Position numbers and translations under genes: made by a program. Of a stretch of DNA of 64,000 nucleotides, positions 3,530 to 43,520 are shown one piece after another. The stretch's first letter is position 1; each line of letters starts with the position of its first letter. Source of the DNA: Pristiophorus japonicus (lineage: Eukaryota). The notes beneath the pieces were generated by a model. That model saw only the letters and a program-made list of their open reading frames with translations. It did not search any database and was not told the DNA's origin. Location: NCBI RefSeq assembly GCF_044704955.1, contig NC_091998.1, positions 50,344,001 through 50,408,000 of the forward strand, read 5' to 3'.

Positions 3530-4167
3530 TGCACTGTGTACATCTGTGAGGATGCTCACAAGTTTGTACAGCTGTTGCAGGTTGGAAGGCCTCCTTGTAG
3601 GACTGCTCCTGGGCATGGCCAAGGGGGCCATCAGCCGGTCCACGCAGCAGGCGGTCGAGGGGGTCGTTCAGCCCGACTGCCTGCCTCCCTTCCATGGTTA
3701 CATCCGAGTCAGGGTGTCCCTGGAGATGGAGCACGCGGTGTCCACCGGTACGCTCGCGGCCTTCCGCGAGAGGTGGGCGCCAGGGAACTGGAGTGCATCA
3801 TCACCCCCCGGCAACCAAATTTTAATTTGATTTAAGTTTGTGGTAAAAGTTAATTTGATTATTTGTTGGGTTTAGTGCCCCCCCCCTTTAATAAGTGGGC
3901 ACTTGATTTATGTTTCAACTAAAATAGTTGTAGAGCTGTTGCATTGTGAGTGGCTTAGCCTGTCATGTGATGATCACAAGCCTTAATAAAACCCCAGCCA
4001 GTTGGGTCTAGGTCATCCACGATGAGGCAGGTGGTTGTGAGCCTGGTGGATGAACTGGTAATGTGTAGTGTGATTGTTAAACCTTTGCTAATGAACCAAC
4101 TAGTTCTTAATAGCAATGTGTTGCTATGAATTCTTAAGCAAAGAACCCATGAAGCAAATACATTACA
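3530..4167 (+). mobile_element. Solo LTR family A copy 1 (interrupted by a Tx1 fragment)
   Basis: TG...CATTACA termini, internal AATAAA, degenerate 5-bp TSD (GATCC/AGTCC); 3929-4167 is nearly collinear with 34384-34620 and 43094-43333. Confidence 0.75.
3580..3928 (+). mobile_element. Tx1-clade LINE 3' fragment
   Basis: ORF 3546..3830 gives LLVGLLLGMAKGAISRS...DCLPPFHGYIRVRVSLEMEH...AFRERWAP, resembling the Tx1 ORF2 C-terminus; flanked by TGTACAGCTGTTGCA / TGTAGAGCTGTTGCA duplication. Confidence 0.75.
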
Positions 4168-4400
4168 AGTCCCATGGCACTAATGCGAAGAAGAGCAGGA
4201 GAGTTCTCCCCGGTGTCCTGGGCCAATATTTATCCCTCAATCAACATCACTAAAGCAGATTATCTGGTCATTATCACATTGCTTGCTGTGCGCAAGTTGG
4301 CTGCCACGTTTCCCACATTACAACAGTGACTACACTCCAAAAGCACTTCATTGGCTGTAAAGCACTTTGGGTGAAAGGCGCTATATAAATACAAGTCTTT
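4168..4400 (+). mobile_element. Deu-domain SINE 3' half
   Basis: CCCATGGCACTA..GAAGAAGAGCAGG..CCAATATTTATCCCTCAA..CATTGGCTGTAAAGC..GGCGCTATATAAAT, collinear with the full copy at 6578. Confidence 0.8.
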
Positions 4401-4569
4401 TTTTTCTTCTTTCTAGTTGCCTCATGGCCGGTTATGAGAGCGTGCTCTGTACAAAGCAGCTGTCGCATTTGCCTACGCATCAGCCACAGTCATTTTTTGC
4501 CGATGAGGGGGGGGCTTTGATTCATTTCTGAAAGCTGTGAGAAGGTGATATATGTAAGTAAATCAACAT

Positions 4570-4732
4570 AACAACAGATTATCTGGCCATTATCACGTTG
4601 CTGTGTGTGGGAGCTTGCTGTGTGCAAATTGCCTGCCGCGTTTCCCACATTACAACAGAGACTGCACTCCAAAAGTACTTCATTGGCTGTAAAGCGCTTT
4701 GAGACGTCCGGTGGTCGTGAAAGGTGCTATAT
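4570..4732 (+). mobile_element. Deu-domain SINE 3' part (tail split by the L2 insertion, resumes ~5255-5280)
   Basis: Collinear with 6880-7040; the tail ATAAATGCAAGTCTTTTCTTTC reappears after the L2. Confidence 0.75.
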
Positions 4733-5251
4733 AACAACAACAACTTGTATTTATATAGCGCCTTTAACGTGGTGAATCATCCCAAGACGCTTCACAGGAG
4801 TATTATGAGATAAAAATTTGACATCGAGCCACATAAGTAGAAATTAGCGCAGGTGACCAAAAGCTTGGACAAAGAGGGAGGTTTTAAGGAGCATCTTGAA
4901 GGAGGAAAGAGAGGTAGAGAGGCGGAGAGGTTCAGGCAGGCAGTTCCAGAGCTTGGGGCCCAGGCAACAGAAGGCACGGCCACCGATGGTTGAGCGATTA
5001 TAATCAGGGATGCTCAAGAGGGCAGAATTAGAGGAGCGCAGACATCTCGGGGGGTTGTGGGGCTGGAGGAGATTACAGAGATAGGGAGAGGGGCGAGGGC
5101 CAGGGAGGGATTTGAAAACAAGGATGAGAATTTGGAAATCGAGGCGTTGCTTAACCGGGTGCCAATGTAGGTCAGCGAGCACAGGGGGTGATGGATGAGC
5201 GGGACTTGGTGTGAGTTAGGACACAGGCAGCCGAGTTTTGGATCACCTCTC
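4733..5251 (-). mobile_element. L2 LINE 3' fragment
   Basis: ORF 4844..5182(-) LADLHWHPVKQRLDFQILILVFKSL...LWNCLPEPLRLSTSLSSFKMLLKTSLF; (TTG)n tail. Confidence 0.85.
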
Positions 5252-6577
5252 ATTTACATAAATGCAAGTCTTTCTTTCTTGATTTAAGTCAGTCTTCCTT
5301 TCCACCATCGTCATGTAGGGTTTCTTTTTTTTGGACAGGAAATAAATCACAATAGCAACAGGCCGAAAAAAAAACCGAGGGCTTCAGTGTCGGTACTGTG
5401 GCACTTAATTTCACCTCTCATCTTGTATAGACTTGCATTTGGCTTCAATCGCCAGCGAAGTCAAATCGCTCAATTTAATTATTATTAACCAAAGTAAACT
5501 GACCTTGTTGGAAAAAAGATATCAAAATGGAAGCCGGCCCATTATTTAAGTCTCTTTTATCTTTTGATCATATAATTCAATATTGAAAATTAATCCATTA
5601 TGAATTGAACCCATAGCCTCAGGGTGAGCAATACCCATCTGACCCTGTTCAGCGTAATTGATTCAGGATGATAGCTTTCAGCTCCAGTCTAGGGCTCTGA
5701 GCATCTGTCCGAGAAAGCATGATCAAAAAAACCAGCATTTAAATAGTTTACCAAACGCGAATTAGGGCTCATACTAAAGCCAGGAATACAGTGGAAACCT
5801 CTTAAGAAGATTTGCGGGTAAATCCCTTCCCTCCTCCCCCCTGGGACCAGCCTCAGAGATTCTCTTAACTTAGTTCCAAGTTTGATAAGATCATTTCCCT
5901 CTTTCTGATAAACTTTGCCGGACGGCAGAACTGAATTGAACGTGGAAGGCTTTGATGCTTCGCGACACCGAAGGCCCTCGATTTATTCCGCGCAGACCGG
6001 CAGTGACATTTTCGGGAGGGGCCTGTCCGCTGTGGCAGTTTCCCGAATTTTGCCCCCAACCCCCCGCCGCGCGCGTCATTCCACGCGAGTGGACAAACGG
6101 GTCTCGTGAATTCTACACGCAAGCAAGACAAGATGCTTAAAAAAGTGGGTGCGCTGTGCCGCGATAGTCGTTTGGACGGACACCGGCCGGCAAATCTTCT
6201 TCCAATGGAAATGAAAAAAACAAGATGGAGATGTCACTTCAACAGAAGGCTCAATTAACTTGGTAAATGCTCGCAAGAAAACGTTATTTTCGGAGGAGCA
6301 CAGGCAGGATGGAAAAACTGAGCCTGGAATGATGATATTTAAAGGTGCTTTTATGCTACAACCGCAGATGTTAACGTTGCAGCTATAATTCCTTTAGCAT
6401 GGGTCTCAAGGCCTGCTGCTGTTTCCGTGAGCTCTGGTTCCCCGCAGTGTGAGATAGAGAGCGGCACTGGAGGGGAAAGTTGAGCAGGGGATCAGAGGTG
6501 GAGGGATACAAGCTCAGCCAAAACCATGGCTGCAGTGTAACAGTGACTGCACTCCAAAAGTATTGTGTTTGTATGTC

Positions 6578-7058
6578 AGCTGTGGCTCAGTGGGCAGCAC
6601 CCTCGCCTCTGAGTCAGAAGGTCGTGGGTTCAAGTCCCCATCTAGGGACTTGAGCACAAAAACCTAGGATGACATTCCAGTGCAGTGCCGAAGGAGCGCC
6701 GCACTGTCGGAGGTGCCGTCTTTGGGATGAGGTGTTAAACCCAGGGCTCGTCTGCTCTCTCAGGTGGATGTAAAAGATCCCACGGCACTATTTCGAATAG
6801 CAGGGGAGTTCTCCCCAGAGTCCTGAACTAATATTTACCCCTCAATCAACATAGTCTAAAAACCTTAAAATCACTAAAACAGATTATCTAGTCATTTTTA
6901 CATTGCTGTTTGTGGGAGCTTGCTGTGCACAGATTGGCTGCCGCGTTTCCCACATTACAACAGTGACGTCGCTCCAAATAAAATACTTCATTGGCTGTAA
7001 AGTGCTTTGGCACATCCGGTGGTTATGAAAGGCGCTATAGAAATGCAAGTCTTTCTTT
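6578..7058 (+). mobile_element. Full-length tRNA-derived Deu-domain SINE (SacSINE1/AmnSINE1-like)
   Basis: Pol III box A TGGCTCAGTGG and box B GGTTCAAGTCC, central GGATGTAAAAGATCCCA.GGCACTATTTCGAA domain, L2-like tail GGCGCTATAGAAATGCAAGTCTTTCTTT. Confidence 0.85.
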
Positions 7059-7358
7059 AATGGAAGTTTCGAGGAGAATAACTCGCTGTAAAAGGTCCCG
7101 GAGCATCATTCCTTTCTCTGCAAAGCTGACTTCTATCCTTTGTCAAGTGCTGCTTTCCTGCGGAAAAAGGTTGCTGATTAAAGTCCCTGATTAATTTACT
7201 GTAAAAAAAAACTCAACCGCTGGGGAAGTACTCGAGCTCAGCATGGGATGAGGGGAGAACAGCCCATAGCACCGTCCAGTTACCCGGCCCGCACTGGGCA
7301 ACCAAACTGGCATCGGCAGAAGCCTGCAAGTGGTGGTATTTTACACAGCGACGCGGAA

Positions 7359-7463
7359 AGAGAGAGCTGGGGAGAGAGAGAGAGAGAGAGATAGAGAGAG
7401 AGAAAGAGAGAAAGAGATTGAAAGAGAGAGTGGGAGGGAAGGAATGAAGGGAGGGAGGGAGGA
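7359..7463 (+). repeat. (GA)n / GGGA purine-rich microsatellite
   Basis: Directly visible GA dinucleotide and GGGA runs. Confidence 0.9.
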
Positions 7464-8094
7464 CTAAACTTGCATTTATATAGCGCCTTTCATGACCTCA
7501 GGACGTCTCAAGCAGGCCCGAGGGACCTTATGGCCCGCTCCTATTTCTTATGTTTTTTTATATTCTTACATTTCGAGGGGATTCACGGTGTTGCTCACTG
7601 CGTTGGTGTATGAGTAACAAACGGCAGTAGCCAGACACTTTTTTTTTTCTTTTGTTAACTTTTGAGAATTGCGGCAGAATGAAGTAAATAGTCACGAAAT
7701 CACAGACAAGCAGTGCAGTGTTCCAAGAGAGGAAATTGACGAAGAGGTTACGACAACATTAAACTTCCAGGAGTCAACGGATGTCAGTAAAACCCGAGGA
7801 CTGAGTCACTTCGAATTCATTCAGAGATTTTGTCTTTATAAAGAAACGCACATTAAAAAACGATTTTTGTTGAAAAACATAGTCTGTGGTTTGGTATCGT
7901 GTCTATTTGTTTTTCCTGCCTTAGCTCGTTTCAGGAAAATAAAATGCAGAAAACCATTGGGAATCCAAACAAGCATTTAATGATGCCAGGATAGAGCAAC
8001 GGACAGTTGATTCTTCAAAGAGAGATGTGGTGTTCTGAGTTACATTTATATGCTATTCTGGGTTACATAGTCACTGTACTAAATTTTATTAACG

Positions 8095-8350
8095 TGGAAC
8101 ACCATCAGCTCCATGTTCCCCTCCAAGTCACACACCAATTCTGACTTGGAAATATATCGCTGCCATTCCTTCATCGTCGCCGGGTCAGAATCCTGGAACT
8201 CCGTTCCTAACAGCACTGTGGGAGCACCTTCACCACACGGACTGCAGCGGTTCAAGAAGGCGGCTCACCACCACCTTCTCAAGGGGCGAGTGGGGATGGG
8301 CAATAAATGCCGGCCTTGCCAGCGACGCCTACATCCCAGGAATGAATTTT
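8095..8350 (+). mobile_element. CR1-group LINE (second family) 3' end
   Basis: SWNSVPNSTVGAPSPHGLQRFKKAAHHHLLKG followed by tail GGGCAATAAATGC.GGCCTTGCCAG; same family at 30820-31220. Confidence 0.7.
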
Positions 8351-8419
8351 TTAAAGACATGGCTACCCTAATCCTGAGACACGTACAATCATGGTTAGCA
8401 AAAAATATGGACAATAAAG

Positions 8420-8650
8420 AGGAAAAACCTTTTTACGCAGCGAGTGGTTAGGATCTGGAATGCGCTGCCTGAGAGGGCGGTGGAGGCAGACTCAACCGTG
8501 GCTTTCAAAAGGGAATTGGATAAGTACCTGAAGGAAAAAAATTTGCAGGTCTACAGGGAAAGGGACTGGCTGAAGTGCTCTTGCAGAGAGCCGGCACGGG
8601 CTCGACAGGCTAAATGGCCTCCTTCTGTGCTGTAACTGTTCTCTGATTCT
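8420..8650 (+). mobile_element. CR1 3' fragment
   Basis: VRIWNALPERAVEADSTVAFKRELDKYL, the CR1 ORF2 terminus. Confidence 0.85.
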
Positions 8651-8677
8651 AACTATGCCATCTCATTTTTTTGTAGA

Positions 8678-9016
8678 AAGAAAAACAGACTTGCATTTAT
8701 ATAGCGTCTTTCACGACCACCGGACATCTCAAACCGCTTCACAGCCAATGAATAACTTTTGGAGTGTAGTCACTGTTGTAATGTAGGAAACGCGGCAGCC
8801 AATTTGCGCACAGCAAGCTCCCACAAACAGCAATGCGATAATGACCAGATGACCGTTCTTGTTATGTTGATTGAGAGATAAATATTGGCCAGGACACCAG
8901 GGATAACTCCCCTTGCTTTTCTTCGAAATAGTGCTAATAAATTTCCAGAGTGGGACTTGAACCCACAAACTTCTGACTCAGAGACGAGAGTGCTGCCCAC
9001 TGAGCCACAGCTGACA
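8678..9016 (-). mobile_element. Deu-domain SINE, internally deleted
   Basis: tRNA head at 8945-9016 is joined directly to the 3' body; compare 6578-7058. Confidence 0.8.
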
Positions 9017-9265
9017 TCAAGTTTAATAACGTTGGTGTAAAGATGGTATCAGCAAATTGATACAGCATCTTGTACTTATACTGTAGTACAAAGTGCATTG
9101 CATACTGTATTAACAGGGTATGGTGGTCTAACGTCAACAGAACTGGACAGGATATCTACAGATCAGGAGTGCAAATCCTGCTATGGAAAACTCTGAAAGT
9201 AAATTCAATGCATATGGTCATTTGTGAGGTGGCGGATCTTTATAAAAACCCCTCTTGTTCATTAT

Positions 9266-10090
9266 CATCACATCATAGGCAGTCCCTCGAACGAGAATGA
9301 CTTGCTTCCCACATGAGTTCACAGACGTTTCAATGAAGGACCCGATGTTCCAGTCCTGAACTCCAGTTGAGGGGGTGGAAGATGCCTGCACATGGATTTT
9401 TTTAACGTGTGGTGACCGTTGTACACCAGCCACCACACGGGCTTGACAGAGCTCGGCCTTTATAGAAACATAGAAACATAGAAAATAGGTGCAGGAGTAG
9501 GCCATTCGGCTCTTCAAACCTGCACCACCATTCAATAAGATCATGGCTGATCATTCCCTCAGTACCCCTTTCCTGCTTTCTCTCCATACCCCTTAATCCC
9601 ATTAGCCGTTAGGGCCATATCTAACTCCCTCTTGAATATATTCAATGAACTGGCATCAGCAACTCTTTGCGGTAGGGAATTCCACAGATTAACAACTCTC
9701 TGAGTAAAGAAGTTTCTCCTTATCTCAGTCCTAAATGGCTTAGCCCTTATCCTTAGACTATGTCCCCTGGTTCTGGACTGCCCCAACATCGGGAACATTC
9801 TTCCTGCATCTAACCTGTCCAGTCCCGTCAGAATTTTATAAGTTTCTATGAGATCCCCTCTCATCCTTCTAAACTTCAGTGATTACAGGCCCAGTCGATC
9901 CAGTCTCTCCTCATATATCAGTCCTGCCATCCTGGGAATCAGTCTGGTGAACCTTCGCTGCACTCCCTCAATAGCAAGAATGTCCTTCCTCAGATTAGGA
10001 GACCAAATAGAAACGTATCCAGTGGCAAGGGTTAACCAGGACGACTGGAGACCAGCTCTGCTGCACGGACCTAGTGTGCGCACACATGTA
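9266..10090 (-). mobile_element. Non-autonomous RTE-tailed element (bipartite RTE-like), split by CR1
   Basis: Shares the RTE 3' end (GGGACTGCCTATGATG); 9266-9461 plus 10015-10090 is collinear with 30463-30730. Confidence 0.65.
9462..10014 (-). mobile_element. Young CR1 3' fragment with (TTTCTATG)n tail
   Basis: ORF 9559..9864(-) [25 protein letters not shown]...FFTQRVVNLWNSLP...GYGEKAGKGY*. Confidence 0.9.
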
Positions 10091-10604
10091 CGATTCCTGC
10101 CTCCATGAAGGATGTTAATGAACTAGACGGACTTTTATGATGATCTGCCTATCCACAAATGGCCTTACCCACATTACGTGGTTGACTCTTACATTTCTCT
10201 GGGCAACTATCGCTGGGCAATAAATATCGGCCTTGTCCGTGTTTTTCCCACATCCCTCGAGCAACAGAAATAATATTCCGGGGGTTGGGGGGGTGGGAGC
10301 GGGGAGTGGGGGGGGGAGACAAGTGAATAATGCAATATAACTTTATCTCCCAAATCCTGTGGATTTAGAAATACTGCTGAGGGGCACAGCAATCTCTGTG
10401 ATATTTTCGAGGCTTTGATGGTCTATAATGGTCTTTTCCGGTCACTTAGAGCCATGCGTCCCCCGTACTTTCTCTGATTATATAGCTCTGCTTTTCCTTA
10501 AATTGGCTCGGACGTGGGACCCAAACATTTTGTAGGGTCGGCAAAGAAAACTGCATGTTCTTCAGACACAACCCCAGAGTGAAGGAAAACAGACACTCAG
10601 TACT

Positions 10605-11062
10605 ACAACAACTTATATTTATATAGCGCCTTTAAAGCAGTGCAACATCCCAAGGTGCTTCACAGGAGTATAATACGATAACAATTTGACACCAAGCCCC
10701 ATGAGTAGAATTTAGCGCAGGTGAGCAAAAGCTTGGTCAAAGAGATAGGTTTTAAGGTAGAGAGGTGGAAATGTTTAGGCAGGGAGTTCCAGAGCTTGGG
10801 GCCCAGGCAACAGAAGGCACGGCCACCGATGGTCGAGTGATTATAATCAGGGATGCTCAAGAGGGCAGAATTAGAGGAGTGCAGACATCTCGGGGGCGTT
10901 TGTGGGGCTGGAGGAGATTACAGAGGGAGGGAGGGGCAAGGCCATGAAGGGATTTATAAACAAGGATGAGAATTTTGAAATTGAGACGTTGCTTAACCGG
11001 AAGCCAATGTAGGTCAGCCCAGGGGTGATTGCTGAGCGGGGCTTGGTGCGAGTTAGGACACG
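10605..11062 (-). mobile_element. L2 LINE 3' fragment
   Basis: SIPDYNHSTIGGRAFCCLGPKLWNSLP plus L2 tail. Confidence 0.85.
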
Positions 11063-12470: not shown

Positions 12471-13664
<1,194 letters not shown>

Positions 13665-20253: not shown

Positions 20254-20967
20254 AAGACCTGGGGGTCCTTGTGCATGAGACACAAAGAGTTAGTATGCAG
20301 GTACAGCAAGTAACCAGGAAGGCAAATGGAGTGTTGGCATTTATTGCAAGGGGGATAGAGTATAAAAGTAGAGAAGTCGTGCTAGAATTGTACAGGATAT
20401 TGATGAGGCCATACCTCAAGTACTGGGTACTGTTTTGGTCTCCGTATTTAAGGAAGGATATACTTGCAATGGAGGCTGTTCAGAGAAGGTTCACTAGGTT
20501 GATTCCGGAGGTGAGGGGGTTGACTTACAAAGATAGGTTGAGTAGGTTGGGCCTATACATATTGGAGTTCAGAAGAATGAGAGGTGATCTTACCAAAACT
20601 TATAAGATAATGAGGGGGCTCGACAAGGTGGATGCAGAGAGGATATTTCCACTCATTGGCAAAACTTGGGGGCATAGCCTCAAAATAAGGGACCGCCCAT
20701 TTAAAACTGAGATGAGGAGGAATTTCTTCTCTGAGGGTTGTAAATCCAAGGAATTCTCTGCCCCAGAGAGCTGTGAAAGCTGGGTCATTGAATATATTTA
20801 AGGTGGAGATAGACAGATTTTTGAACGATAAGGGAGTAAAGAGTTATGGGGAACGGACAGGGAAGTGGAGCTGAGTCCATGATCAGATCAACCATGATCT
20901 TATTAAATGGTGGAGCAGGCTCGAGGGGCCAAATGGCCGACACCTGCTCCTATTTCTTACGTTCTTA
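20254..20967 (+). mobile_element. CR1 3' fragment
   Basis: ORF 20193..20801 KDLGVLVH...KANGVLAFIARGIEYKSREV...[10 protein letters not shown]. Confidence 0.92.
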
Positions 20968-31220: not shown

Positions 31221-31771
31221 GAAAATAATCCATTTATTTTGATTGCCTGCCTTAAAAAGCAGTAAACGCGCTTGCACGGAACTTAACCAATTGGGAAATA
31301 TATTCTGCTAACTGCCTGTTAATCCATCCTAGATCTTGCTGCCCAAAAGAAGCAGGATCACCAAGTCAATCTGTTCTTAATCAATTTCTTGAAACCTTTG
31401 TAGAAACTCTCACTGGCAATTCAAGTAACCTGCAAAATTGAGTATCATAAAACGTTAATTTTAACTGGATAATGGATTGATAACATAGGAAGCGGAGTAG
31501 TCCACTCCAAACTTGAGTCTGTTCCTCCATTCAATTAGATCATGGGTGATCTATACCTCAACTCTGTGTACCCGTCTTTGTTCCATATCCCTTGATAACC
31601 TAATCTAACAAAAACCTAGCGATCTCAGTCTCGAAAATTTAAATTGGCCACCATCTACCGCCTTTTGGGAGCAAGTTCCTAATATGCACGACTCTTAACA
31701 TGAGAAAGTGCTTCCTGATTTTAACGCTGCATTCAGCGATGTAGTGCACGGACCTGTGATTGTGCTCACAC

Positions 31772-33971
31772 TTTCAATATTTGAAGGGGCTGCTCCTCAA
31801 ATTCTGGTTGCACTTCAGTCCCACGCTCCTGATCTTTGGGCACCCTGTGCGGAGGGGAGCAGGCAGGTTGGTCCTGCTCCTGGGCCTGGCCAAGGGGCCC
31901 ATCAGCCAGTCCAGACAGCGGGTGGTCGAGGGGGTCGTTCAGCCCGACTGCCTGTCTCTCCTCCATGGTTACATCCGAGCCAGGGTGCCCCTGGAGATGG
32001 AGCACAGAAACATAGAAACATAGAAAATAAGTGCAGGAGTAGGCCATTTGGCCCTTCGAGCCTGCACCACCATTCAATAAGATCATGGCTGATCATTCCC
32101 TCAGTACCCCTTTCCTGCTTTCTCTCCATACCCCTTGATCCCTTGAGCCGTAAGGGCCATATCCAACTCTCTCTTGAATAAATCCAATGAACTGGCATCA
32201 ACAACTCTCTGTGGCAGGGAATTCCACAGGTTAACAATTCTCTGAGTGAAGAAGTTTCTCTTCATCTCAGTCCTAAATGGCCTACCCCTTATCCTAAGAC
32301 TGTGTCCCCTGGTTCTGGACTTTCCCAACATCAGGAACATTCTTCCCGCATCTAATCTGTCCAGTCCCGATAGAATCTTATTAGTTTCTATGAGATCCCC
32401 TCTCATCCTTCTAAACTCCAGTGTATAAAGGCGCAGTTGATCCAGTTTCTCCTCATATGTTAGTCCAGTCATCCCTGGAATCGGTCTGGTGAACCTTCGC
32501 TGCATTCCCTCAATAGCAAGAATGTCCTTCCTCAGATTAGGAGACCAAAACTGAACACAATATTCCAGGTGAGGTCTCACCAAGGCCCTGTACAACTGCA
32601 GTAAGACCTCCCTGCTCCTATACTCAAATCCCCTAGCTATGAAGGACAACATATCATTTGCCTTCTTCACCGCCTGCTGTACCTGCATGCCAACTTTCAA
32701 TGACTGATGAACCATGACACCCAGGTTTCATTGCATCTCCCCTTTTACTCATCTGCAGCCATTCCGATAATATTCTGCCTTCGTGTTTTTGCCCCCGAAG
32801 TGGATAACCTCACATTTATCCACATTATACTGCATCTGCCATGCATTTGCCCACTCACCTAACCTGTCCAACCTCTTAGCGTACCCCTCACAGCTCACAT
32901 CACCACCCAGTTTAGTGTCATCTGCAAACTTGGAGATATTACACTCAATTCCTTCATCTAAATCATTAATGTATATTGTAAAGAGCTGGGGTCCCAGCAC
33001 TGAGCCCTGCAGCATTCCACTAGTCACTGCCTGCCATTCTGAAAAGGACCCGTTTATCCCGACTCTCTGCTTCCTGTCTGCCAACCAGTTCTCTATCCAC
33101 GTCAGTACAATACCATGTGCTTTGATTTTGCACACCAATCTCTTGTGTGGGATCTTATCAAAAGCCTTTTGAAAGTCCAAATACACCACATCCACTGGTT
33201 CTCCCTTGTCCACTCTGCTCGTTACATCCGCAAAAAATTCCAGAAGATTTGTTAAGCATGATTTCCATTTCATAAATCCATGCTGACTTGGACCGATCCT
33301 GTCACTGCTTTCCAAATGCGTTGCTATTTCATCCTTAATGATTGATTCCAACATTTTCCCCACTACTGAAGTCAGGCTAACCGGTCTATAATTACCCGTT
33401 TTCTCTCTCCCTCCTTTTTTAAAAAGTGGTATTACATTAGCTACCCTCCAGTCCATGGGAACTGATCCAGAGTCGATAGACAGTTGGAAAATGATCACTA
33501 ATGCATCCACTATTTCTAGGGCCACTTCCTTCAGTACTCTGGGATGCAGACTATCAGGCCCCGGGGATTTATCGGCCTTCAATCCCATCAATTTCCCTCA
33601 CATAATTTCCCGTCTAATAAGGATATCCTTCAGTTCCTCCTTCTCACTCGACCCTCGGTCCCCTAGTACATCCGGAAGGTTATTTGTGTCTTCCTTCGTG
33701 AAGACAGAACCAAAGTATTTGTTCAATTGGTCTGCCATTTCTTTGTTCCCCATTATAAATTCACTAATCTTTTTCTTTTCCTGTATCTATCGAAGCTTTT
33801 GCACGCGGGCGCCGGAGGGACTGGAGTGCATCATCAGCCCCGACAACCAAATTTTAATTTGATTTTAATGTCTAAATGTTAATTTGTTTAATTTGCCGGT
33901 TTTAATGCCCCCCCCCCCCCCCCCCCTTTTAGCCAGGGGGCACTTGATTATTTGTTATACAACAAAATAGT
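31772..33971 (+). mobile_element. Tx1-clade LINE 3' fragment (31772-32004 and ~33804-33971) split by CR1
   Basis: FQYLKGLLLKFWLHFSPTLLIFGHP...LLGLAKG..DCLSLLHGYIRARVPLEMEH; resumes RAPEGLECIISPDNQILI*; ends AAAATAGT. Confidence 0.75.
32005..33765 (-). mobile_element. Young CR1, ~1.76 kb ORF2 with full RT domain
   Basis: ORF 32749..33591(-): KSPGPD..HPRVLKE, GNYRPVSLTS, QHGF, YLDFQKAFD, QGSVLGP, FADD. Confidence 0.95.
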
Positions 33972-33980
33972 TGTAGAGCT

Positions 33981-34349
33981 TGATTCCAAAGGGGCCCATC
34001 AGCCGGTCCAGGCAGCGGGCGGTCGAGGGGGTCGTTCAGCCCGACTGCCTGCCTCTCTTCCATGGTTACATCCGAGCCAGAGTGTCCCTGGAGATGGAGC
34101 ACGCGGTGTCCACCGGTATGCTTGCGGCCTTCCGCGAGAGGTGGGCGCCAGAGGGACTGGAGTGCATCATCACCCCCGGTAACCATATTTTGATTTGATC
34201 TGTTAGTGTCTAAAGTTTAATTTGTCTATGTTTTTCGGTTTTAGTACCCCCTCCCCCTTTTAGCCAGAGGGCACTTGTATTAAAGTTTGCCATCTAATTT
34301 ACCCCTGTAATAAGGGGGCATTTGATTTGTGGATGCAACTAAAAATAGT
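33981..34349 (+). mobile_element. Tx1-clade LINE 3' fragment (second serial insertion)
   Basis: KGPISRSRQRAVEGVVQPDCLPLFHGYIRARVSLEMEH...AFRERWAPEGLEC; bounded by TGTAGAGCT repeats. Confidence 0.75.
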
Positions 34350-35414
34350 TGTAGAGCTTGATTATCGTTCTGCGTAAAATAGTTGTGGAGCTGTTGAGTT
34401 GGGAGTGGCTTAGCCGGTCACGTGATGTTCACAAGACTCAATAAAACCCCAGCCAGTTGGGTCTAGGTCATCACAATGATGTATGCAGTAGTGAGCCTAG
34501 TGGATGAACTGGTAATGTGTAGTGTGATTGTTAAACCTTTGTTAATAAACAACTAATTCTTAATAGCAATGTGTTGCTATGAATTCTTGAGCAAAGCACC
34601 CATGTAGCAAATACATTACAAGCGATATCACTATAAGACTTTATGATATCAATATATAGCACAATTATTTATTTCTTAGCATGGTCCAAAGAAGTGAGCC
34701 AATAAAGTTAACACAAACTGGGGACATTCGGTACAATTATTCAGATTTTAATGATTAATAAATTGATCTGGATATATACTTGAAAAGGAAAGATTTGCAG
34801 GCCTACACGGAAAGGACTGGGACTAATTGGACAGCTCTTCCAAAGAGTTGGCACAGTCACGATGGGCTGAATGGCCTCCTCCCACACTGCATCAATCTAT
34901 GAAGTGTCCATCGCTCTGGACCGACTGCTTCTTGTAAGTTTGTAATCTTCACTGTGATGGTGAAGCCTGCACTGATATTGCAATGGTGAGGCTACTCAAA
35001 TTTTAACCTAATTTAACTTTATTTTCCCCAAATATTCAACCAAAGAGCATTTTTCTTAATTGCAACAATTGTCTTCGGCCCCTGCCAGAAACTCCGTTCC
35101 ATAGCCATTTATTCCACCCCCTCCCTGACCACTGGCTCAGGCTGAAGAGACTGCTCGCAACCTTTCCCACATTGCAACAGTGACCACACTCCAAAAAGTA
35201 CGTCATTGGCTGTAAAGCGCTTTGAGACGTCCGATGGTCATGAAAGGCGCTACATAAATGTAAGTCAGTCTTTCTTTCTTTTTTGTAAAGTGCCTGTGTA
35301 CGTTTTACTACATTAAAGACGCTGTATAAATCCAGCTTGTTGCTGCCAAGAACTGGGCTCAAAAATAATTTTTAAACTAATTAAAAGCCAGTTTGGTGCT
35401 GATTGACATGATGT

Positions 35415-36006
35415 CATAGAATCATAGAAATTTACAGCACGGAAGGAGGCCATTTCGGCCCATCGTGTCCGCGCCGGCCGACAAAGAGTTATCCGGCCTA
35501 ATCCCACTTTCCAGCTCTCGGTCCGTAGCCCTGTAGGTTACGGCACTTCAAGTGCACATCCAAGTACTTTTTAAATGTGATGAGGGTTTCTGCCTCTACC
35601 ACCCTTTCAGGTAGTGAGTTCCTGATCCCCAAAACCCTCTGAGTGAAAACATTTCTCCTCAAATCCCCTCTAAACTCCCTACCAATTACTTTAAATCCAT
35701 GCCTGCTGGTTATTGACCCCTCTGCTAAGGGAAATAGGTCCTTCCTATCCACTCTATCTGGGCCCCTCAAAATGTTATACTCCTCAATTAGGTTTCCCCT
35801 CAGCCTATTCTGTTTCAAAGAAAACAAATCCAGCCTATCCAATCTATCCCCATAGCTAAAATTCTCCAGTCCAGGCAACGTCCTCGTAAATCTCCTCTGC
35901 ACCCTCTCTAGTGCAATCACATCTTTCCTGTAATGTGGAGACCAGAACTGCACGCAGTACTCCAGCTGTGGCCTACCTAATGTATGATACGGTTTAAGCA
36001 TAACCT
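35415..36006 (-). mobile_element. CR1 3' fragment
   Basis: ORF 35498..36031(-) [28 protein letters not shown]...GKWD*. Confidence 0.9.
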
Positions 36007-36384
36007 CACAAATCACAAATCTCCTACACATTTTTATGCATGAAGCGAGGACGGGATTTCCGACTCAGCAAGTAGCCATCGGGGGAAGGGATCACTTGGA
36101 CAAGTGAACACACCTGCAGCATGCTAAGGGTTAAAATATGTTCACTCAACACATACATGGTTAGTTTAGGAATATCTGTAAAATTAACCACGTCATGCAT
36201 TACACGTTTTGGGCACTTGGTTCATTCAATGAGAGGAATTTAGGCAACGGGAGCAGAGAGCAACTGCAGGGATAGAGCAGGAAAGTGAAATTGAGGTTGA
36301 AGATCAGCCATAATCTCATTGAATGGCAGAGCAGGCTCGAGGGCCAAATTATCTCCTCCTGCTCCTAATTCTTCTGTTCTTATA

Positions 36385-36776
36385 TTCTCATCCTTATTTT
36401 CAAATCCCTCCATATCGCCCCTCCCCATCTCTGTAATCTCCTCCAATCCCACAACCCCCCGAGATGTCTACGCTCCTCTAATTCTGCCCTCTTGAGCATC
36501 CCTGATTATAATCGCTCAACCATCGATGGCCGTGCCTTCTGTGGCCAAGGCCCCAAGCTCTGGAACTCCCTGCCTAAACCTCTCCGCCTCTCTAGCTCTC
36601 TTACCTCCTCTAAGGCGCTCCTTAAAAACCTACCTCTTTTACCAAGCTTCTGGTCACCTGCCCTAATTTCTACTTATGCGGCTGGGTATCAAATTTTTTG
36701 TCTTATACTTGTGCGAAGCGCCTTGGGAGATTTCACTGCATTAAAGGCGCTATATAAATACAAGTTGTTGTTGTTC
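36385..36776 (+). mobile_element. L2 LINE 3' fragment (preceded by a CR1 tail at ~36255-36380)
   Basis: ORF 36492..36851 N-part SIPDYNRSTIDGRAF..PKLWNSLP; (TTG)n tail. Confidence 0.85.
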
Positions 36777-37254
36777 ATCTCATTAGAGATAGCGAACAGA
36801 GGAAGGTTCACAAACACCTGTGAACCGCCTTGGGATGTTTTACTACGTTAAAGGCACTATAGAAATACAATTTGTTGTTGTAGTTCTGATCAACCCATCC
36901 CCTCAAACACCAACCACCTGGCTCCACCCCAAAGGTCTCCAAGATGTCAAAACAAAATCCTTTTGTCTTTATAAATTTTAACAAAGCGATGCAGTGGGGA
37001 CTCTTGTTGAAGCGTGGTGCTGTGAGCCGCGCAAACCGCTAATGGCAATCTTCTCCGGGAATAAAAATTTCAATTGCTGCAGCATCTCAAAAATTAAACC
37101 CTGTGACAGCTTGCGCCAGAACCATTATCTCCGACGGTAATTATGGGAGCTGTGACGAATTGTTCCAGTTAGCAGGGGCCCCCTGCATTTCTGATGATGA
37201 ACTGGAGGAATTTGTTTTTTTGAGGGGGGGATGGGAGGTCGTGAAGGGATAAAG

Positions 37255-37681
37255 TGAAAGATTTGCATCTAGATAGCACTTTTCACCACCAGCACACGTC
37301 TCAAAGTGCTTTCTTGCCAGTGAAGTACTTTTGAAGTGCAATCACTGTTGTACTGTGGGAAACAAAGCAGCCAATTTGCGCACAGCAAGCTCCCACAGAC
37401 AGCAATGTGATAATGACCAGATTATCTGTTTTAGTGATGTTGATTGAGGGATAAATATTGGCCCCAGGGCACCCGGGATAACTCCCCTGCTCTTCTTCGA
37501 AATAGTGCCACGGGATCTTTTACGTCCACCTGAGAGAGCAGACGGGGCCTCGGTTTAACATCTCTATCCAAAAGACAGCACCTCAATCTAGATTTTTGAA
37601 CTTAAGTCTCTGGTGTGGGACTTGAACCCACAACCTTCTCACTCAGAGGTGAATGTGCTGCCCACTGAGCCACAGCTGACG
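37255..37681 (-). mobile_element. Deu-domain SINE, near full length
   Basis: Head GGGACTTGAACCC...CCCACTGAGCCACAGCT at 37618-37677 plus body and tail. Confidence 0.85.
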
Positions 37682-38004
37682 CTGCAGAAGGTCCAGAAAG
37701 GGCCATGTGCTGTAGATGAGTTTCAAAATGATTTACTTAATTATCGAATTATACAGCGCAGAAGGAGGCCATTCGGCCCATCGTGTCAGTGCTGGCTCTG
37801 TGAAAGAGCAGATACAATTAGTCCCATTCCCCCCTGCTCCTCATAGCCCTACAATTATCTTTGCTTTTTTAAGCAGCGATCCAATCATATTGAATTTGCA
37901 CAGAATTTCTTATTAAATTCCTAAATACTGTTCACGGAGGCAGTAACCCTTCAAACAAAAAGGTCCTGGTCCTTTGAAGAGAGCCTGAAAAAAATATTTT
38001 CACA

Positions 38005-38850
38005 ACATAAGAACGTAAGAAATAGGAGCAGGAGTAGGCCATTCAGCCCCTGGAGCCAGCTCCGCCATTCAATAAGACCATAGCTGATCTTTAACCTCAA
38101 TGCCACTTTCCCGCCCAATCCCCATATCCCTTGATTCCCTTAAGATTCAAAAATCTAGCGATCTCTGTCTTGAATATACTCAAAGACTGAGCCGCCACAG
38201 CCCTCTGGGGTAGAGAATTCCAAAGATTCACCACCCTCTGAGTGAAGAAATCTCTCCTCATCTCAGTCCTAAATGGCCGACCCCTTATTCTGAGACTGTG
38301 ACCCCTGGTGACTCCCCAGCCCGGGGGAAACATCTTCCCTGCATCTACTCTGTCAAGCCCTGTAAGAATTCTGTATGTTTCAATGAGATCACCTCATTCT
38401 TCTAAACTCTGGAGAGTATCGGCCTAGTCTGCTCAATCTCTCCTCATTTAAAAAACCCCTATCCCAGAAATCAGTCTGGTGAACCTTCGTTGCACTCCAT
38501 CTGTTATGTATTTAACCCATAGCAATCTGTATCACATCACCACCAGAGGGCCTACCTGTTGGAGTCCCAAGGGATCCCAGCATCCCTTGGGAGCACTGTA
38601 GATAAGCAGGCCTCCCATGCTGTACCTGCACTCTGGGGTCTAATTAAAGGAGCTAAGGTCACACTTACTCATTGCATAAAGTACTCAGTTTCATCTTTTA
38701 TTATGAGCATAATACCCTCCGTGGCAAGTATATCCTTCCTTAGGTAAGGAGACCAAAACTGTGCACAATACTCCAGGTGCAGTCTTACCAGGGCCCTATA
38801 TAATTGCAGTAAGACATCTTTATTCTAATACTCAAATCCTCCTGTAATAA
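38005..38850 (-). mobile_element. CR1 3' fragment split by solo LTR C
   Basis: ORF 38097..38333(-); TGCACTCCATC | CCCTCCGTGGCAAGTATATCC rejoin across the LTR. Confidence 0.88.
38502..38714 (+). mobile_element. 213-bp solo LTR (family C, Gypsy-like size)
   Basis: TGTTATG...CATAATA inverted termini; 5-bp TSD CCATC/CCCTC; cleanly interrupts the CR1. Confidence 0.75.
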
Positions 38851-39535
38851 TAACAATGGGGGAGATGCTCCAACATATGAAAATCAGGGAGGAGAGGGGA
38901 TTGGTTAATGATAATAAAAAGAAAGACTTGGATTTATATAGCGCCTTTCACGACTACCGGACGTCTCAAAGCACTTTACAGCCAATGAAGTACTTTTGGA
39001 GTGTAGTCACTGTTGTAATGTAGGAATAAAAATAAGTTCCTTTTGTTGTGCTGGGAGGAAAGAACGAGAGGGACATTTTTCATCCTGCAGTGTGCTGAAA
39101 CGGTTGATTGGGACAGTGTTTAGGGCGGTTTTCAGTCGAAATGCCAAACACCAGTACACGAAATTCAAAACATTATTCTGATATTTGTTTTGCAGATATT
39201 TTTACCAGCAACGTCAGGATGCACTAACTATTTGCGATATGACTGAAGACATGATTATGAGGAAAGCTTCAGCTCAACCTAACTTGAGCTCAATATTCAA
39301 CTTGGCGTTACTGTTCTGGGGAATAGATGACCAGTTAACACAGTGACTCCATTTAACTATTCAATAGAAGATTTATTAAAGAGAGAGAAATCTAGTTGAA
39401 GAGCAAAAGTCCATAGTTCAGACAACACCGAAAATTGGAGAGAAGATAAAGTCATCAAGGACTGGTGGCTCGATGATGGTAACTTTGGGTTTTAAAAGAC
39501 GGCATATTATGTGCTCGGCCAATACTGACCTATTC

Positions 39536-40460
39536 ATCATCATCATAGGCAGTCCCTCGGAATCGAGGAAGACGTGCTTCCACTCTTAAAATGAGTTCTT
39601 AGGTGGCTGTATAGTCCAATACGAGAACCACAGTCTCTGTCACAGATGGGACAGATAGTCGTTGAGGGAAAGGGAGGGTGGGACAGGTTTGCCGCACGCT
39701 CCTTCTGCTGCCTGCGCTTGATTTCTGCACGCTCTCAGCGATGAGACTCGAGGTGCTCAGCGCCCTCCCGGATGCACTTCCTCCACTTAGGGCGGTCTTT
39801 GGCCAGGGACTCCCAGGTGTCGGTGGGGATGTTGTACTTTATTAGGGAGGCTTTGAGGGTGTTCCTGTAACGTTTCCTCTGCCCACCTTGGGCTCGTTTG
39901 CCGTGAAGGCGTTCCGAGTAGAGCGCTTGCTTTGGGAGTCTCGTGTCTGGCCTGCGGACAATGTGGCCTGCCCAGCGGAGCTGATCAAGTGTGGTCAGTG
40001 CTTCAGTGCTGGGGATGTTGGCCTGGTCGAGGACGCTAATGTTGGTGCGCCTGTCCTCCCAGGAGATATGTAGGATCTTGCGGAGACATTGTTGGTGGCA
40101 TTTCTCCAGTGACTTCATGTCTACTGTACATGATCCATGACTCTGAGCCATACAGGAGGGCGGGTATTACTACAGCCCTGTAGACCATGAGCTTGGTAGC
40201 AGTTTTGAAGGCCTGGTCTTCAAATACTCTTTTCCTCAGGCGGCCGAAGGCTGCACTGGCACATTGGAGGCGGTATTAAATCTCATCGTCAATCTGCTCT
40301 TGTTGATAAGAGGCTCCCGAGATATGGGAAATGGTCCACGTTGTCCAGGGCCACACCGTGGATCTTGATGACTTGGGGGGCAGCTTTGCGACGAGGACAG
40401 ACTGGTAGAGGACCTTTGTCTTACGGATGTTTAGCGTAAGGCCCATGCTTTCGTACTGAT
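39536..40460 (-). mobile_element. RTE LINE 3' fragment (~0.9 kb)
   Basis: ORF 39735..40151(-) LEKCHQQCLRKIL.ISWED...QLRWAGHIVR.PDTRLPKQALYSE..HGKR.QGGQRKRY. Confidence 0.9.
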
Positions 40461-40471
40461 CTATTATCACA

Positions 40472-40897
40472 AGAACAACAACAACATATATTTATTTCTC
40501 ACCTTTAATGTAGTGAAACGTCCCAAGGTGCTTCACAGGAGTATTGTGCGATAACAATTTGACACCAAGCCGCATAAGGGAAAATTAGCGCAGGTGACCA
40601 AAAGCTTGGTCAAAGAGGTAGGTTTTAAGGAGCGTCTTGAAGGAGGAAAGAGAGAGATGGAGAGGTTTAGGGAGGGAGTTCCAGAGCTTGGGGCCCAGGC
40701 AACAGAAGGCACGGCCACCAATGGTTGAGTGATTATAATCAGGGATGCTCAGGAGGGCAGAATTGGAGGAGCGCAGATATCTTAGGGTAGTTGTGGGGCT
40801 GGAGGAGATTACAGAGATAGGAAAGGGCGAGGCCATGGAAGGATTTGTAAATAGGGATAAGAATTTTGAAATCAAGGCGTTGCTTAACCGGAAGCCG
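40472..40897 (-). mobile_element. L2 LINE 3' fragment
   Basis: LPVKQRLDFKILI..KSFHGLA and FKTLLKTYLFDQAFG. Confidence 0.85.
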
Positions 40898-41315
40898 ATC
40901 ACGGCCAACATCCAGCCAATCACATGTCGATACACACATCTACCTTAAGGAAGCTTGTGCATCAAACTACTTCTGCCAACCACCACAAACTATCCTTCAC
41001 GTCCGTTCAGAATGCCCGCAATGCTGTCATTATCTTACCACCAGCCCCAAGTTGAGTCAAAGCCTCAGGAGAAATGGGAAGAAAATTTGGGGCGGAAAAT
41101 GGAACTAGCCACTAATCTTGTATTTAATTATTTCTTGTAAATTCTTAAGAGTCCTCATTGTTGTACTTTTGGTTTGCTATATCTTACTCAGAAGGGCACC
41201 AAATCGCACCACTTACCAGCTCCCGAAAACATTTCTCTCTTTCACAGAGACAATAATCCAACTGAGGACTGAGCGAAAACTCACTGGAACCGGTGTATTT
41301 TCTGCACAGCGTTAC

Positions 41316-41828
41316 AGTCAGAAGGTTGTGGGTTCAAGTCCCACTCCAAAGACCTGACCACACAAAATCTAGACTGACACACCCAGTGCAGCACTGAGGG
41401 AGTGCTGCAGTGTCGGAGGTGTCGTCTTTTGGATGAGATGTTAAACCGAGGCCCCGTCTTCTCTCTCAGGTGGGCGTAAAAGATTGCATGGCACTATTTC
41501 GAAGAAGAGCAGGGGAGTTCTACCCCGGTGTCATAGCAATATTTAGTCCTCAATTAACATCAATTAAAAAAAAGGTTATCTTGTCATTTTCACATTGCTG
41601 TTTGTGGGATCTTGCTGTGCGCATATTGGCTGCCACATTTCTAACATTCATAGGCAGTCCCTTGGGATCGAGGAAGATTTGCTTCCACTCTTAGCATGAG
41701 TTCTTAGGTGGCTGTACAGTCCAATATGACATTAAAACAGTGACTACACTCCAAAAAGTACTTCATTGGCTTTAAGCGCTTTGAGACACCCTGAGGTCGT
41801 GAAAGGTGCTATAGAAATGCAAGTCTTT
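41316..41828 (+). mobile_element. Deu-domain SINE with a short antisense RTE tail inserted at ~41648-41728
   Basis: Box B GGTTCAAGTCC at ~41331, SINE body, ACATT duplicated around CATAGGCAGTCCC...CCAATATG. Confidence 0.8.
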
Positions 41829-42417
41829 ACTTCTATATTTCCATCTAATTTCCATCATTTTACCAGCCAGCCACTCACGAGTGGTAAAACGGTCACGAAT
41901 TCTCCATTAACTTGCCCGTGTTATGTAGGCATTGGTCAGCGAGCCTCACCTGACGCGTTTCATTAATTCATAAGACTGCAGAATGTTTCATCATTTTCCA
42001 AATGTCAACTCCTCAATCATCGCCTTACGACAAGTGCTTTCAGGGAAAAATGTGCGCGCAACCTTTAGAAATATCTCTGGCTGCCCTTCAAAGTAAATGG
42101 CAACTGAATAATGCTGATAGCACCTTCCTGCATTCGCTCCACTTGCTGGTCCTTCCTTGGACTGCACACGTCACACAGATAGGAGGCGAAGGCGGGGACT
42201 TTGCTCAAATGATACGGCCAACGCCAATCCTGCCCAATTTCCAGGGGGCACTCGGGAGCCAGTGTACACTCTCCATTGGGTTGTCGTTGAAAGCTGACAC
42301 CGAGTTACCATGGGCACCTACTACACACAGTGTCGTGGCCAAGGGCCGTGGTGCTTTGGAGAAGCTGGAGGAAATCGAACCTAAACCTCACCACTCTGGG
42401 GCACGAGTGTTTGTAAA

Positions 42418-42929
42418 TTCTTGCATTGGAGGCAGGTCAGAGAAGGTTCACGAGGTTGATTCCTGAGATGAAGGAGTTGTCTTGTGAAGAAAGGTTGAGC
42501 AGGTTGGGCCTGTACTCATTGGAGTTTGGAAGAATGAAAGGGGATCTTATTGAAACGTATACGATTCTGAGGGGGCTCGACTGGATAGATGCAGAGAGGA
42601 TGTTTCCCCTCCTGGGGGAATCTAGAACTAGGGGGCATAGTTTCAGAATAAGGGGTCTCCCATTTAAAACGGAAATGAGGAGGAATTTCTTCTCTCAGAG
42701 GGTCGTGAATCTTTGGAATTCTCTACCCCAGAGAGCTGTGGAGGCTGGGTCATTGAATATATTTAAAGTGGAGATAGATAGATTTTTGAACGATAAGCGA
42801 GTGAAGGGTTATGGGGAGCGGGCGGGGAAGTGGAGTTGAGATCAAGATCAGATCAGCCATGATCTTATTGAATGGCGGAGCAAGCTCGAGGGGCCAAATG
42901 GCCTAGTCCAATTTCTTATGTTCTTATGA
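42418..42929 (+). mobile_element. CR1 3' fragment
   Basis: ORF 42426..42839 ...FFSQRVVNLWNSLPQRAVEAG...GKWS*. Confidence 0.92.
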
Positions 42930-42931
42930 AG

Positions 42932-43520
42932 TCATAGAATGGTTACAGCACAGAAGGAGGCCATTCGGCCCGTCGAGCCTGTGCCCGCTCACTGCAAGAG
43001 CACTTCAGCCAGTCCACTCCCCCCGTCCTTTCCCCATAATCCTGCAAAATGTTTTCCTTCAGGTACACACATCTGTGAGTATGCTCACAGATTTGTAGAG
43101 CTGCTGTATTGTGAGTGGCTTAGCCAGTCACGTGATGTTCACAAGACTCAATAAAACCCCAGCCAGTTGGGTTCAGGGGATCCACGATGGGACAGGTGGT
43201 TGTGAGCCTGGCGGATGAACTGGTAATGTGTAGTGTGATTGTTAAACCTTTGCTAATAAACCAACTCGTTCTTAATAGCAATGTGTTGCTATGAATTTTT
43301 AGGCTAAGAACCCATGAAGCAAATACATTCACAAGGTACTTATCCAATTCCCTTTTGAAAGCCACGATTGAATCGACCCCCATCACCATCTCAGGCAGCG
43401 CATTCCAGATCCTAACCACTCGCTGCGTAAAAAAGTTTTTCCTCATGTCGCCTTTGCACCTGCTGCCAATCACCTTAAATCTGTGTCCTCTGGTTCTCGA
43501 CCTTTCCGCCAATGGGAACA
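42932..43520 (-). mobile_element. CR1 3' fragment split by solo LTR A copy 3
   Basis: RTRGHRFKVIG...FFTQRVVRIWNALP...FKRELDKYL. Confidence 0.85.
43066..43333 (+). mobile_element. Solo LTR family A copy 3 (empty Tx1 target site; first ~7 nt apparently lost)
   Basis: TSD AGGTA (43061-43065 / 43334-43338); uninterrupted GCTCACAGATTTGTAGAGCTGCTG; two AATAAA. Confidence 0.8.

Follow-up and report, generated by a model that had tools for sequence, protein, structure and literature searches.

A Tx1 retrotransposon lineage of the shark Pristiophorus japonicus recurs at one site of a Gypsy long terminal repeat and has probably moved on to a CR1-type LINE

How does a mobile element come to reside, over and over, at one position of another mobile element? 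This question is raised by a 64,000-nucleotide stretch of the Pristiophorus japonicus genome (NC_091998.1, positions 50,344,001 to 50,408,000, forward strand), here called the window, in which remnants of a Tx1-type retrotransposon sit inside copies of a long terminal repeat (LTR). An initial annotation, made from the window alone, had proposed that a Tx1 family uses this multicopy LTR as its target, and the proposal was supported by a genome-wide tally of 3' flanks and by the spread of 5' truncation points. We hold with good confidence that Tx1 came to lie at one site in thousands of independent LTRs of a Gypsy element by directed nicking, that the lineage then switched to a long interspersed nuclear element (LINE) of CR1 type, and that its 5' ends were often copied from downstream DNA. 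In the following, L-numbers are labels of fetched genome loci, and labels of the form G000:C denote contigs within one 5.92-Gb genome.

The three LTR copies described in the window (3530-4167, 31740-34620 and 43066-43333) were re-located together with their junctions (Table 1). Copy 1 contains a Tx1 3' fragment of about 350 bp flanked by the duplication originally noted (3565-3579, repeated from 3929). This target-site duplication (TSD) measures 12-15 bp, its final 3 bases being common to the Tx1 start, and the fragment is 85.6% identical to positions 6679-7005 of a natural full-length sister copy. In copy 2 the serial inserts with junctions at 33971, 34349 and 34383 are present. The 5' junction of this copy lacks a TSD, LTR base 32 being fused straight to Tx1. 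Its first insert is interrupted by a later 1.8-kb CR1-type LINE, a repeat that recurs across the whole window, and the 5-bp host TSD AGCGA brackets copy 2 on both sides. The variant TGTAGAGCTTGATT in both inner TSDs of copy 2 is absent from the 3' copy, which fits serial insertion at the 5'-most TSD. Copy 3 is empty, as had been claimed, and the inserts of the window do differ in 5' truncation, starting at positions 6679, 6586 and 6721 on the natural 7.2-kb copy, with a 20-nt stub in addition. The site itself had been placed correctly; its usual form is CACAGGTT^TGTAGAGCTGTTG, and the GATT form seen in the window is a variant, not the standard.

Table 1. Features of the window that belong to the LTR copies, their Tx1 inserts and the CR1-type sites
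Feature	Position	Strand	Remark
Copy 1 of the Gypsy solo LTR, bases 1-35, upstream of cut	3530..3564	+	host 5-bp flanks mismatch at 2 of 5 positions
Copy 1, 5' TSD copy	3565..3579	+	last 3 bases common to Tx1 start
Copy 1, 5'-truncated Tx1: C-terminal 83 codons of open reading frame 2 (ORF2) and short 3' untranslated region (UTR)	3580..3928	+	end AAAATAGT, older LTR-type terminus
Copy 1, 3' TSD copy and LTR bases 36-274	3929..4167	+	
Copy 2, host TSD AGCGA (31735-31739) and LTR bases 1-32	31735..31771	+	5' junction without Tx1 TSD
Copy 2, first Tx1 insert, 5'-most	31772..33971	+	presumably latest; split by CR1-type LINE
CR1-type LINE, 3' part	32006..33790	-	later insertion into first Tx1 insert; 3' boundary approximate
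Copy 2, TSD copy (variant TGTAGAGCTTGATT) and second Tx1 insert	33972..34349	+	
Copy 2, TSD copy (variant TGTAGAGCTTGATT) and 20-nt Tx1 stub ending AAAATAGT	34350..34383	+	presumably earliest
Copy 2, 3' TSD copy, LTR bases 36-274 and host TSD AGCGA (34621-34625)	34384..34625	+	
Copy 3, empty solo LTR	43066..43333	+	cut 43093/43094; upstream hexamer CATCTG; first bases eroded
Empty CR1-type target site of sister subfamily	52385..52400	-	CACCTG 18 nt upstream
Second empty CR1-type site	20265..20280	-	upstream hexamer TACCTG

With the Tx1 end at 3780-3928 as query, 2,856 candidates were obtained genome-wide, of which 40 were scored and 30 fetched; an exact terminus pattern added 15 loci. Neither Tx1-end query contains downstream sequence. 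Upon tabulation of the 3' flanks of these best-scoring or exact-pattern matches, the LTR site came next in 34 of 43 distinct loci (33 of 42 without the query), a fraction above the more than 20% of one flank type used as a criterion for target-specific Tx1 (PMC4494074). The sequence ran on as LTR in 27 cases, was a TSD followed by a further insert in 7 and lay elsewhere in 9. The insertion site is fixed at LTR base 35/36, with a duplication of 12-15 bp. The filled junction has 7,084 exact occurrences in the genome and the reversed control pattern has none; recurrence of the junction is therefore not due to chance. The statement that no Tx1 sequence lies beyond this LTR holds inside the window and fails genome-wide, given the 9 of 43 sampled ends found elsewhere, a second site in the LTR and a sister with another target.

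Filled sites made up 41 of 63 LTRs whose GATT site is intact (L412 reassigned), 18 of 26 LTRs chosen by their 5' end, some of these being deletions or other inserts, and 14 of 60 (by script; about 18 by eye, many being uninformative) of those chosen by their 3' end. A fair reading is that roughly half of the LTRs are filled. The empty-site pattern with its 340 matches captures the GATT variant only, includes 5' TSD copies and is no measure of the number of empty LTRs. Among LTRs not picked by their 5' end, the cut-site core TTTGTAG was intact in 35 of 51 filled as against 7 of 30 empty copies (p=9e-5; the empty set includes four copies of head type as well as two near-duplicate pairs). In the 30 best-scoring empty LTRs, diversity was 0.23 at bases 33-39 and 0.21 at bases 12-17, compared with 0.05-0.09 in other windows of the LTR. 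The depletion of intact cores and these diversity peaks make the empty LTRs look like escapees. The same test on LTRs picked by their 5' end gave no effect (p=1.0) and is confounded by truncated TSDs.

Nine two-LTR Gypsy copies were readable at both sites: five are discordant (L239, L242, L250, L252 and L218), four are unfilled and none is filled at both. A single shared 5' truncation point, which the initial annotation had named as the mark of one amplified chimera, was looked for, and 88 first-insert starts were found spread over 5172-7033 in 49 clusters. Because the host TSDs differ, the truncations spread over 1.9 kb and 0 of 9 two-LTR copies are doubly filled, we conclude that the insertions are independent and did not arise by hitchhiking.

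The stacks of inserts have a direction. Where a stack is mixed, the younger terminus is found on the 5' side of the older one in 22 of 25 pairs, and neighbours in a stack share their 5' point in 29 of 39 cases compared with 1.8% of random pairs. Equating a shared 5' point with hitchhiking proved too simple, as stack neighbours with a common 5' point have 3' ends that show separate insertions. Of 2,042 candidates, 30 loci with an old-type 5' UTR were collected, and in 22 of them LTR sequence that originates downstream of the cut stands before this region, 16 of these heads being long and 6 short; the set includes two near-duplicate loci and perhaps a few inserts at the second site. The LTR resumes from the cut site at the 3' end of 8 copies, so that about 115-150 bp of LTR are duplicated in them. 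Long heads match the subtype of the local LTR in 7 of 8 cases (the subtypes occur at 56:51), and rare variants are common to head and local LTR in L378, L387 and L393. The simplest single cause of these 5' ends is probably a switch of the complementary DNA (cDNA) onto homologous DNA downstream of the nick, from where it would be copied back to the TSD. As a separate observation, three LTR-site inserts (L086 1528-1601, L090 1523-1615 and L092 1528-1599) open with a whole pre-tRNA consisting of leader, gene and trailer, with an intron in L090, followed by the Tx1 3' part or a short AAAAGAGT end. Similar heads were seen by eye in L153, L157 and L419, below the Rfam cut-off. The pre-tRNA heads are likely template switches to small RNAs.

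An endonuclease search returned 13,500 candidates, from which 20 copies with long frames were fetched (ORF1 about 700 and ORF2 about 1,300 amino acids). None of the 20 shows the junction with the LTR. Instead, these copies are joined at TTCATGCACAAGGAC, which lies antisense in the reverse transcriptase (RT) region of a second LINE, and this junction occurs 16,015 times in the genome. The flank reads as antisense RT coding sequence whose relatives are RT/endonuclease proteins of birds, rays and sharks, none of them named CR1; this target is presumably of CR1 type. Identity in the 3' part of ORF2 is 0.981 within the CR1 type and 0.928 within the late LTR type, compared with 0.934 between them. 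In a midpoint-rooted DNA tree of 50 3' ORF2 pieces, a ladder leads from old LTR over later LTR to CR1 type, the latter forming one clade (support 100/99) nested among LTR-type copies. Terminal branches measure 0.05-0.15 in the old LTR type with its AAAATAGT end, 0.03-0.09 in the later LTR type (AAAAGAGT) and 0.004-0.025 in the CR1 type. Late full-length LTR-type copies (105 pattern matches) start directly after the LTR TSD, and the 5' ends of the CR1 type open with CAAT plus a 12-mer; in each of 9 such ends, 9-10 of the 12 bases agree in register with the LTR TSD. A tandem array of at least three copies (L456, L480 and L484; G000:C1, 509.39-509.40 Mb) occupies a third target, its TSD starting TCTGTGGAC, and has at its 5' ends an almost perfect relic of the LTR site; the array connects the late LTR type with the CR1 type. 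A quickly computed protein tree, with 22 copies and three outgroup proteins, placed the root among old LTR-type copies and grouped late LTR, third-target and CR1 copies with a Shimodaira-Hasegawa-like approximate likelihood-ratio test (SH-aLRT) value of 97. From these sequences it is very likely that the lineage switched its target from the LTR to the CR1-type LINE, the LTR users being the older.

Two loci of the sister deserve separate mention. L473 had been entered as a late LTR-type copy; its 3' end is CR1-flanked and it was left out of the ORF2 column comparison and the protein tree. L466, L473 and L481 (G000:C3, 202.154-202.163 Mb) contain a young CR1-flanked copy with a late LTR-type endonuclease region, nested in a late LTR-type copy, which is consistent with a switch onto the resident downstream copy. 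On G000:C1, at 9.710-9.761 Mb, eight CR1-type junctions follow one another at intervals of about 7.2 kb, as would be expected if full-length young copies formed a long tandem array there.

The inserted element appears to be a non-LTR retrotransposon of the Tx1 clade. The best named full-coverage match to the ORF2 fragment of LTR-type copies is the TX1 149-kDa protein of Xenopus laevis (YTX2_XENLA; 42% identity over 480 amino acids, E 7.7e-108), to which the sister ORF2 is 49% identical over 1297 amino acids. Pfam domains Exo_endo_phos and RVT_1 were found on sister copy L290, and LTR-type copies contain the homologous endonuclease. An RVT_1 piece in L166 and a zf-CCHC match on the 702-amino-acid ORF1 frame of the sister (E 0.0046) were below the curated cut-offs. 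Two predicted shark/ray proteins, P0010 and P0014 (transglutaminase 2-like and VWA7-like), start with Tx1 ORF2 sequence. They are probably gene-model artefacts and show that related Tx1 occurs in other cartilaginous fish.

The host of the insertions is, by its sequence features, a Ty3/Gypsy LTR retrotransposon and evidently dead. With Ty3/Gypsy elements it shares the TG...CA LTR, the primer site, the polypurine tract and the order protease-RT-RNase H-integrase. Its LTR is a 274-bp TGTAATG...CATTACA repeat with a 10-bp terminal inverted repeat (5,023 candidates). A 5-bp TSD with at most one mismatch was found at 25 of 47 loci with both ends, the flanks being unrelated, and at 16 of 30 empty copies. 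The primer site TGGCGACGAGGATGG follows the LTR in 38 exact matches; one of the 30 viewed belongs to another family. The internal region runs from a gag-like part over protease and RT/RNase H to integrase, with a purine tract before the 3' LTR, and matched the Pfam families gag-asp_proteas (below cut-off), RT_RNaseH_2, RT_RNaseH and rve; a gag homology search on it gave no match. Copy L240 has a length of 5.5 kb, which would leave little room for env. Every internal frame seen is broken and most copies are solo LTRs. 'Mag-like' and 'tRNA-Ser primer' are presumed labels for this host. Patterns with a TGG(C/T)G primer site one base past the LTR, or with the purine tract, returned solo LTRs only; the internal region was found with the correct spacer between LTR and primer site, taken from L203. 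The idea that the 274-bp repeat is a miniature inverted-repeat transposable element was rejected after the internal region had been found. In L217 (1513-1570), past a Gypsy LTR, the primer site continues for about 55 nt in antisense tRNA-like form, which looks like a copy of the primer tRNA. Five units, L161-L165 (G000:C17, 111.08-111.18 Mb), are 98-100% identical and about 21.5-24.5 kb apart, a recent tandem segmental duplication.

In the mechanism that we propose, sequence-directed nicking at LTR base 35/36 and target-primed reverse transcription would take place copy by copy, after insertion of the LTR. New copies would enter the 5'-most TSD, in keeping with the observed 5'-ward growth of the stacks, and the lineage would later have moved from the old, about half-filled LTR to the CR1-type LINE. 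The cDNA would often switch to homologous DNA downstream, either resident Tx1 or LTR, and copy back to the TSD; such copying would produce both shared 5' breakpoints and LTR-derived heads. Several observations weigh against this picture. The loci sampled for flanks were not random draws, and since 9 of the 43 sampled ends are off-site, 8 of them sharing only TGT or TGC at the cut, specificity for the LTR site is not strict. Host TSDs back the pairing of LTRs only for L216 and L218 and do not match for L240 and L241. In 16 shared-breakpoint pairs identity is higher in the 5' half than in the 3' half (0.919 vs 0.902, p=0.046), a small gap. The rooted protein tree has SH-aLRT support only and long outgroup branches. 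Aligned to the LTR alone, the CR1-type 5' end is not significant compared with shuffles, the relic being visible only in register with late LTR-type junctions. As to the protein, comparison of 5-6 copies of the late LTR type with 19 of the CR1 type gave 36 differing ORF2 columns; 8 lie in the endonuclease and 28 outside it. The hairpin loop shows the change R196V, but V is already found in the LTR-flanked copies L468 and L470, and CR1-flanked L290 retains late-type residues at 65, 67, 74 and 159. No endonuclease change therefore seems to mark the switch cleanly.

Two explanations would do without a true target or without independent insertion. One or a few Tx1-LTR chimeras might have been multiplied by Gypsy, or an insert might have been tandemly duplicated along with its TSD; the common 5' points of 29 of 39 stack neighbours and the segmental duplicates L161-L165 speak for this. 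A site close to the LTR's 5' end would, however, reach both LTRs of a hitchhiking element, yet no pair of the nine is filled at both and five are discordant, and the 88 first inserts fall into 49 breakpoint clusters. Duplication is opposed by the 16 shared-breakpoint pairs, since the terminus types of the two members are unlike in 10 of them and their 3' UTR lengths are more than 40 nt apart in 12, and the 1.8% null was drawn from real inserts at the same site, so that breakpoint hot spots are already included. We consider this explanation very improbable as the general cause. Amplification of chimeras is already largely refuted, though it may account for individual stacks in which the units match over their whole length. 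No more credence is given to 3' transduction, in which Tx1 transcripts would read through into the LTR and carry its downstream part along. Two AATAAA hexamers lie in the downstream LTR, and transcripts of R1, a site-specific LINE of Drosophila, are described as bearing downstream target sequence in the available text of PMC2718515. But LTR bases 1-48 and the TSD stand upstream of the inserts at 51 filled 5' junctions, and the 5-bp host TSD encloses the whole composite. As the upstream LTR halves are intact, transduction is refuted as the main cause; a short read-through that pairs with the nicked strand may aid targeting.

The other two explanations leave insertion at the site as it is and differ on how 5' ends and specificity arise. 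LTR heads could be a fixed, inherited part of the Tx1 RNA, gained by 5' co-transcription from an LTR and annealed to the TSD overhang with no downstream copying, modelled on joining by melanogaster-type R1 (precedent in the text available of PMC2718515). Four of 30 copies have a short head with a common internal deletion (LTR 35-68 plus about 141-160), so that part of the head sequence is inherited; in L382 the head's 3' part is unlike the local LTR, and the CR1-type relic is inherited. This account is nevertheless unlikely for the heads as a whole, as long heads track the local LTR subtype in 7 of 8 cases, head and local LTR have rare variants in common in L378, L387 and L393, and the shared breakpoints of truncated stacks would go unexplained. 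A somewhat better, though still doubtful, candidate is a lax endonuclease (TT^TGY-like) with the site set by a CACCTG E-box anchor 18 nt upstream, common to both targets and thereby enabling the switch; its reader would be either a DNA-binding protein of the host or some other part of the element. The sequence TGCACCTG-N18 precedes the cut in both targets, an 8-base run expected by chance at about 4e-4, and the hexamer is at this offset in 11 of 12 listed CR1-type 5' junctions, several near-identical, and is shifted by one base in the twelfth. Where the core is intact, the hexamer is intact as well in 10 of 29 empty LTRs and in 48 of 76 filled ones (p=0.015, against p=0.12-0.45 for four control hexamers). 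Growth of the stacks takes place at the 5' TSD, the sole copy with the upstream context, and endonuclease changes are few. Against the anchor, no difference is seen without conditioning (27/51 vs 15/30, p=0.82), the cut-site sample gave p=0.063 with 0.11 for a neighbouring control, and the p of 0.015 is lost once five tests are counted. At the 5 off-site inserts that have a TSD, the hexamer is absent from that offset; in the window, copies 1 and 2 are filled although they read CATCTG and GACCTG, and the hexamer is variable in filled LTRs as well.

Further observations concern sites outside this argument. A second site in the same LTR has its TSD at LTR bases 158-172, starting TGAACTGG (L330 8758-9421, L392, L229 and L359); the Tx1 copies there carry a 3' UTR of their own, and one LTR subtype has CAGGTG, which is CACCTG in reverse complement, 17 nt upstream. 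In L385, L475, L476, L382, L357 and L330, Tx1 3' ends abut Tx1's own 5' UTR, ORF2 or 3' UTR starting TGT or TGC, and three of these copies share one spot just before ORF1. The window also contains a 23-bp satellite at 53948-63999 (about 442 copies, 80% matches) that extends past the window end, and at 49685-50083 a 40-bp tandem repeat of about 10 copies made from the 3' end of the common CR1-type repeat.

Targeting of LTRs by Tx1 is already known from crocodilians, in which Tx1-8_Crp and Tx1-4_AMi of the Tx1-Mar group are reported to prefer specific LTR retrotransposons (PMC4494074, Kojima 2015); the pairing as such adds one new example. According to the parts of that paper available, sister families with different transposon targets, two hot spots within a single target, tandem insertion and small-RNA heads are common to both cases, and the target-derived sequence at the 5' ends of the Tx1 described here resembles the target-derived 5' extension described there for the SINEU-2B subfamily. 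In the same parts, a single sentence is given to LTR targeting, and it names neither a site nor a TSD nor a direction of change; for the present element the site, the host, the succession of subfamilies, the use of a LINE as second target and the 5' relic of the old site are resolved. Tx1L of X. laevis, the best named relative, likewise combines an apurinic/apyrimidinic endonuclease (APE) and RT with another transposon as target. That target is reported to be Tx1D, a non-autonomous piggyBac element (PMC4494074, PMC6719617), unlike the Gypsy LTR and the later CR1-type LINE. In the available text of PMC1950540 the Tx1L endonuclease nicks almost exclusively its target in vitro, and grafts of L1 endonuclease indicate that the hairpin loop shapes specificity; by-eye alignment gives this loop as WVRPG(R/V)GW here and YVRVRDGHVSQ in Tx1L. 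R1 of Drosophila 28S ribosomal DNA is, as far as the text available goes, an APE-type, site-specific element with a 14-bp TSD and arrays that are extended by insertion at the resident copy's 5' TSD; in one lineage the RNA bears target sequence at its 5' end (PMC2718515, Stage and Eickbush 2009). The present element is like R1 in being a site-specific APE LINE with TSD, 5'-growing arrays and target sequence at 5' ends. The sequence carried by R1, however, is 6-27 nt from upstream of the site, whereas here the duplicated sequence is 115-170 nt of LTR downstream of the cut and follows the local copy, and shared truncation points of distinct stacked copies were not found for R1 in the available text (PMC2718515). 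In the full-text literature we found no shark Tx1 that targets an LTR or CR1 and no polarised Tx1 switch; Repbase, Dfam and older papers may hold cases. New here are the probable polarised target switch, the relic of the old site and the proposed downstream copying.

Target change in site-specific LINEs is usually argued from distant relatives. The users of the old and the new target described here are about 93% identical in DNA and about 36 ORF2 columns apart, intact frames exist and the direction of change can be read; with users this close, specificity determinants are testable by few swaps. More tentatively, one lineage may combine a record of the switch from LTR to CR1, downstream copying that captures pieces of the target (possibly a promoter), a relic of the old site and a shared CACCTG anchor with few protein changes. 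The determinants of specificity bear on the use of such elements for site-directed insertion, and the stacks and LTR heads offer thousands of naturally occurring examples of the way in which LINEs complete their 5' junctions.

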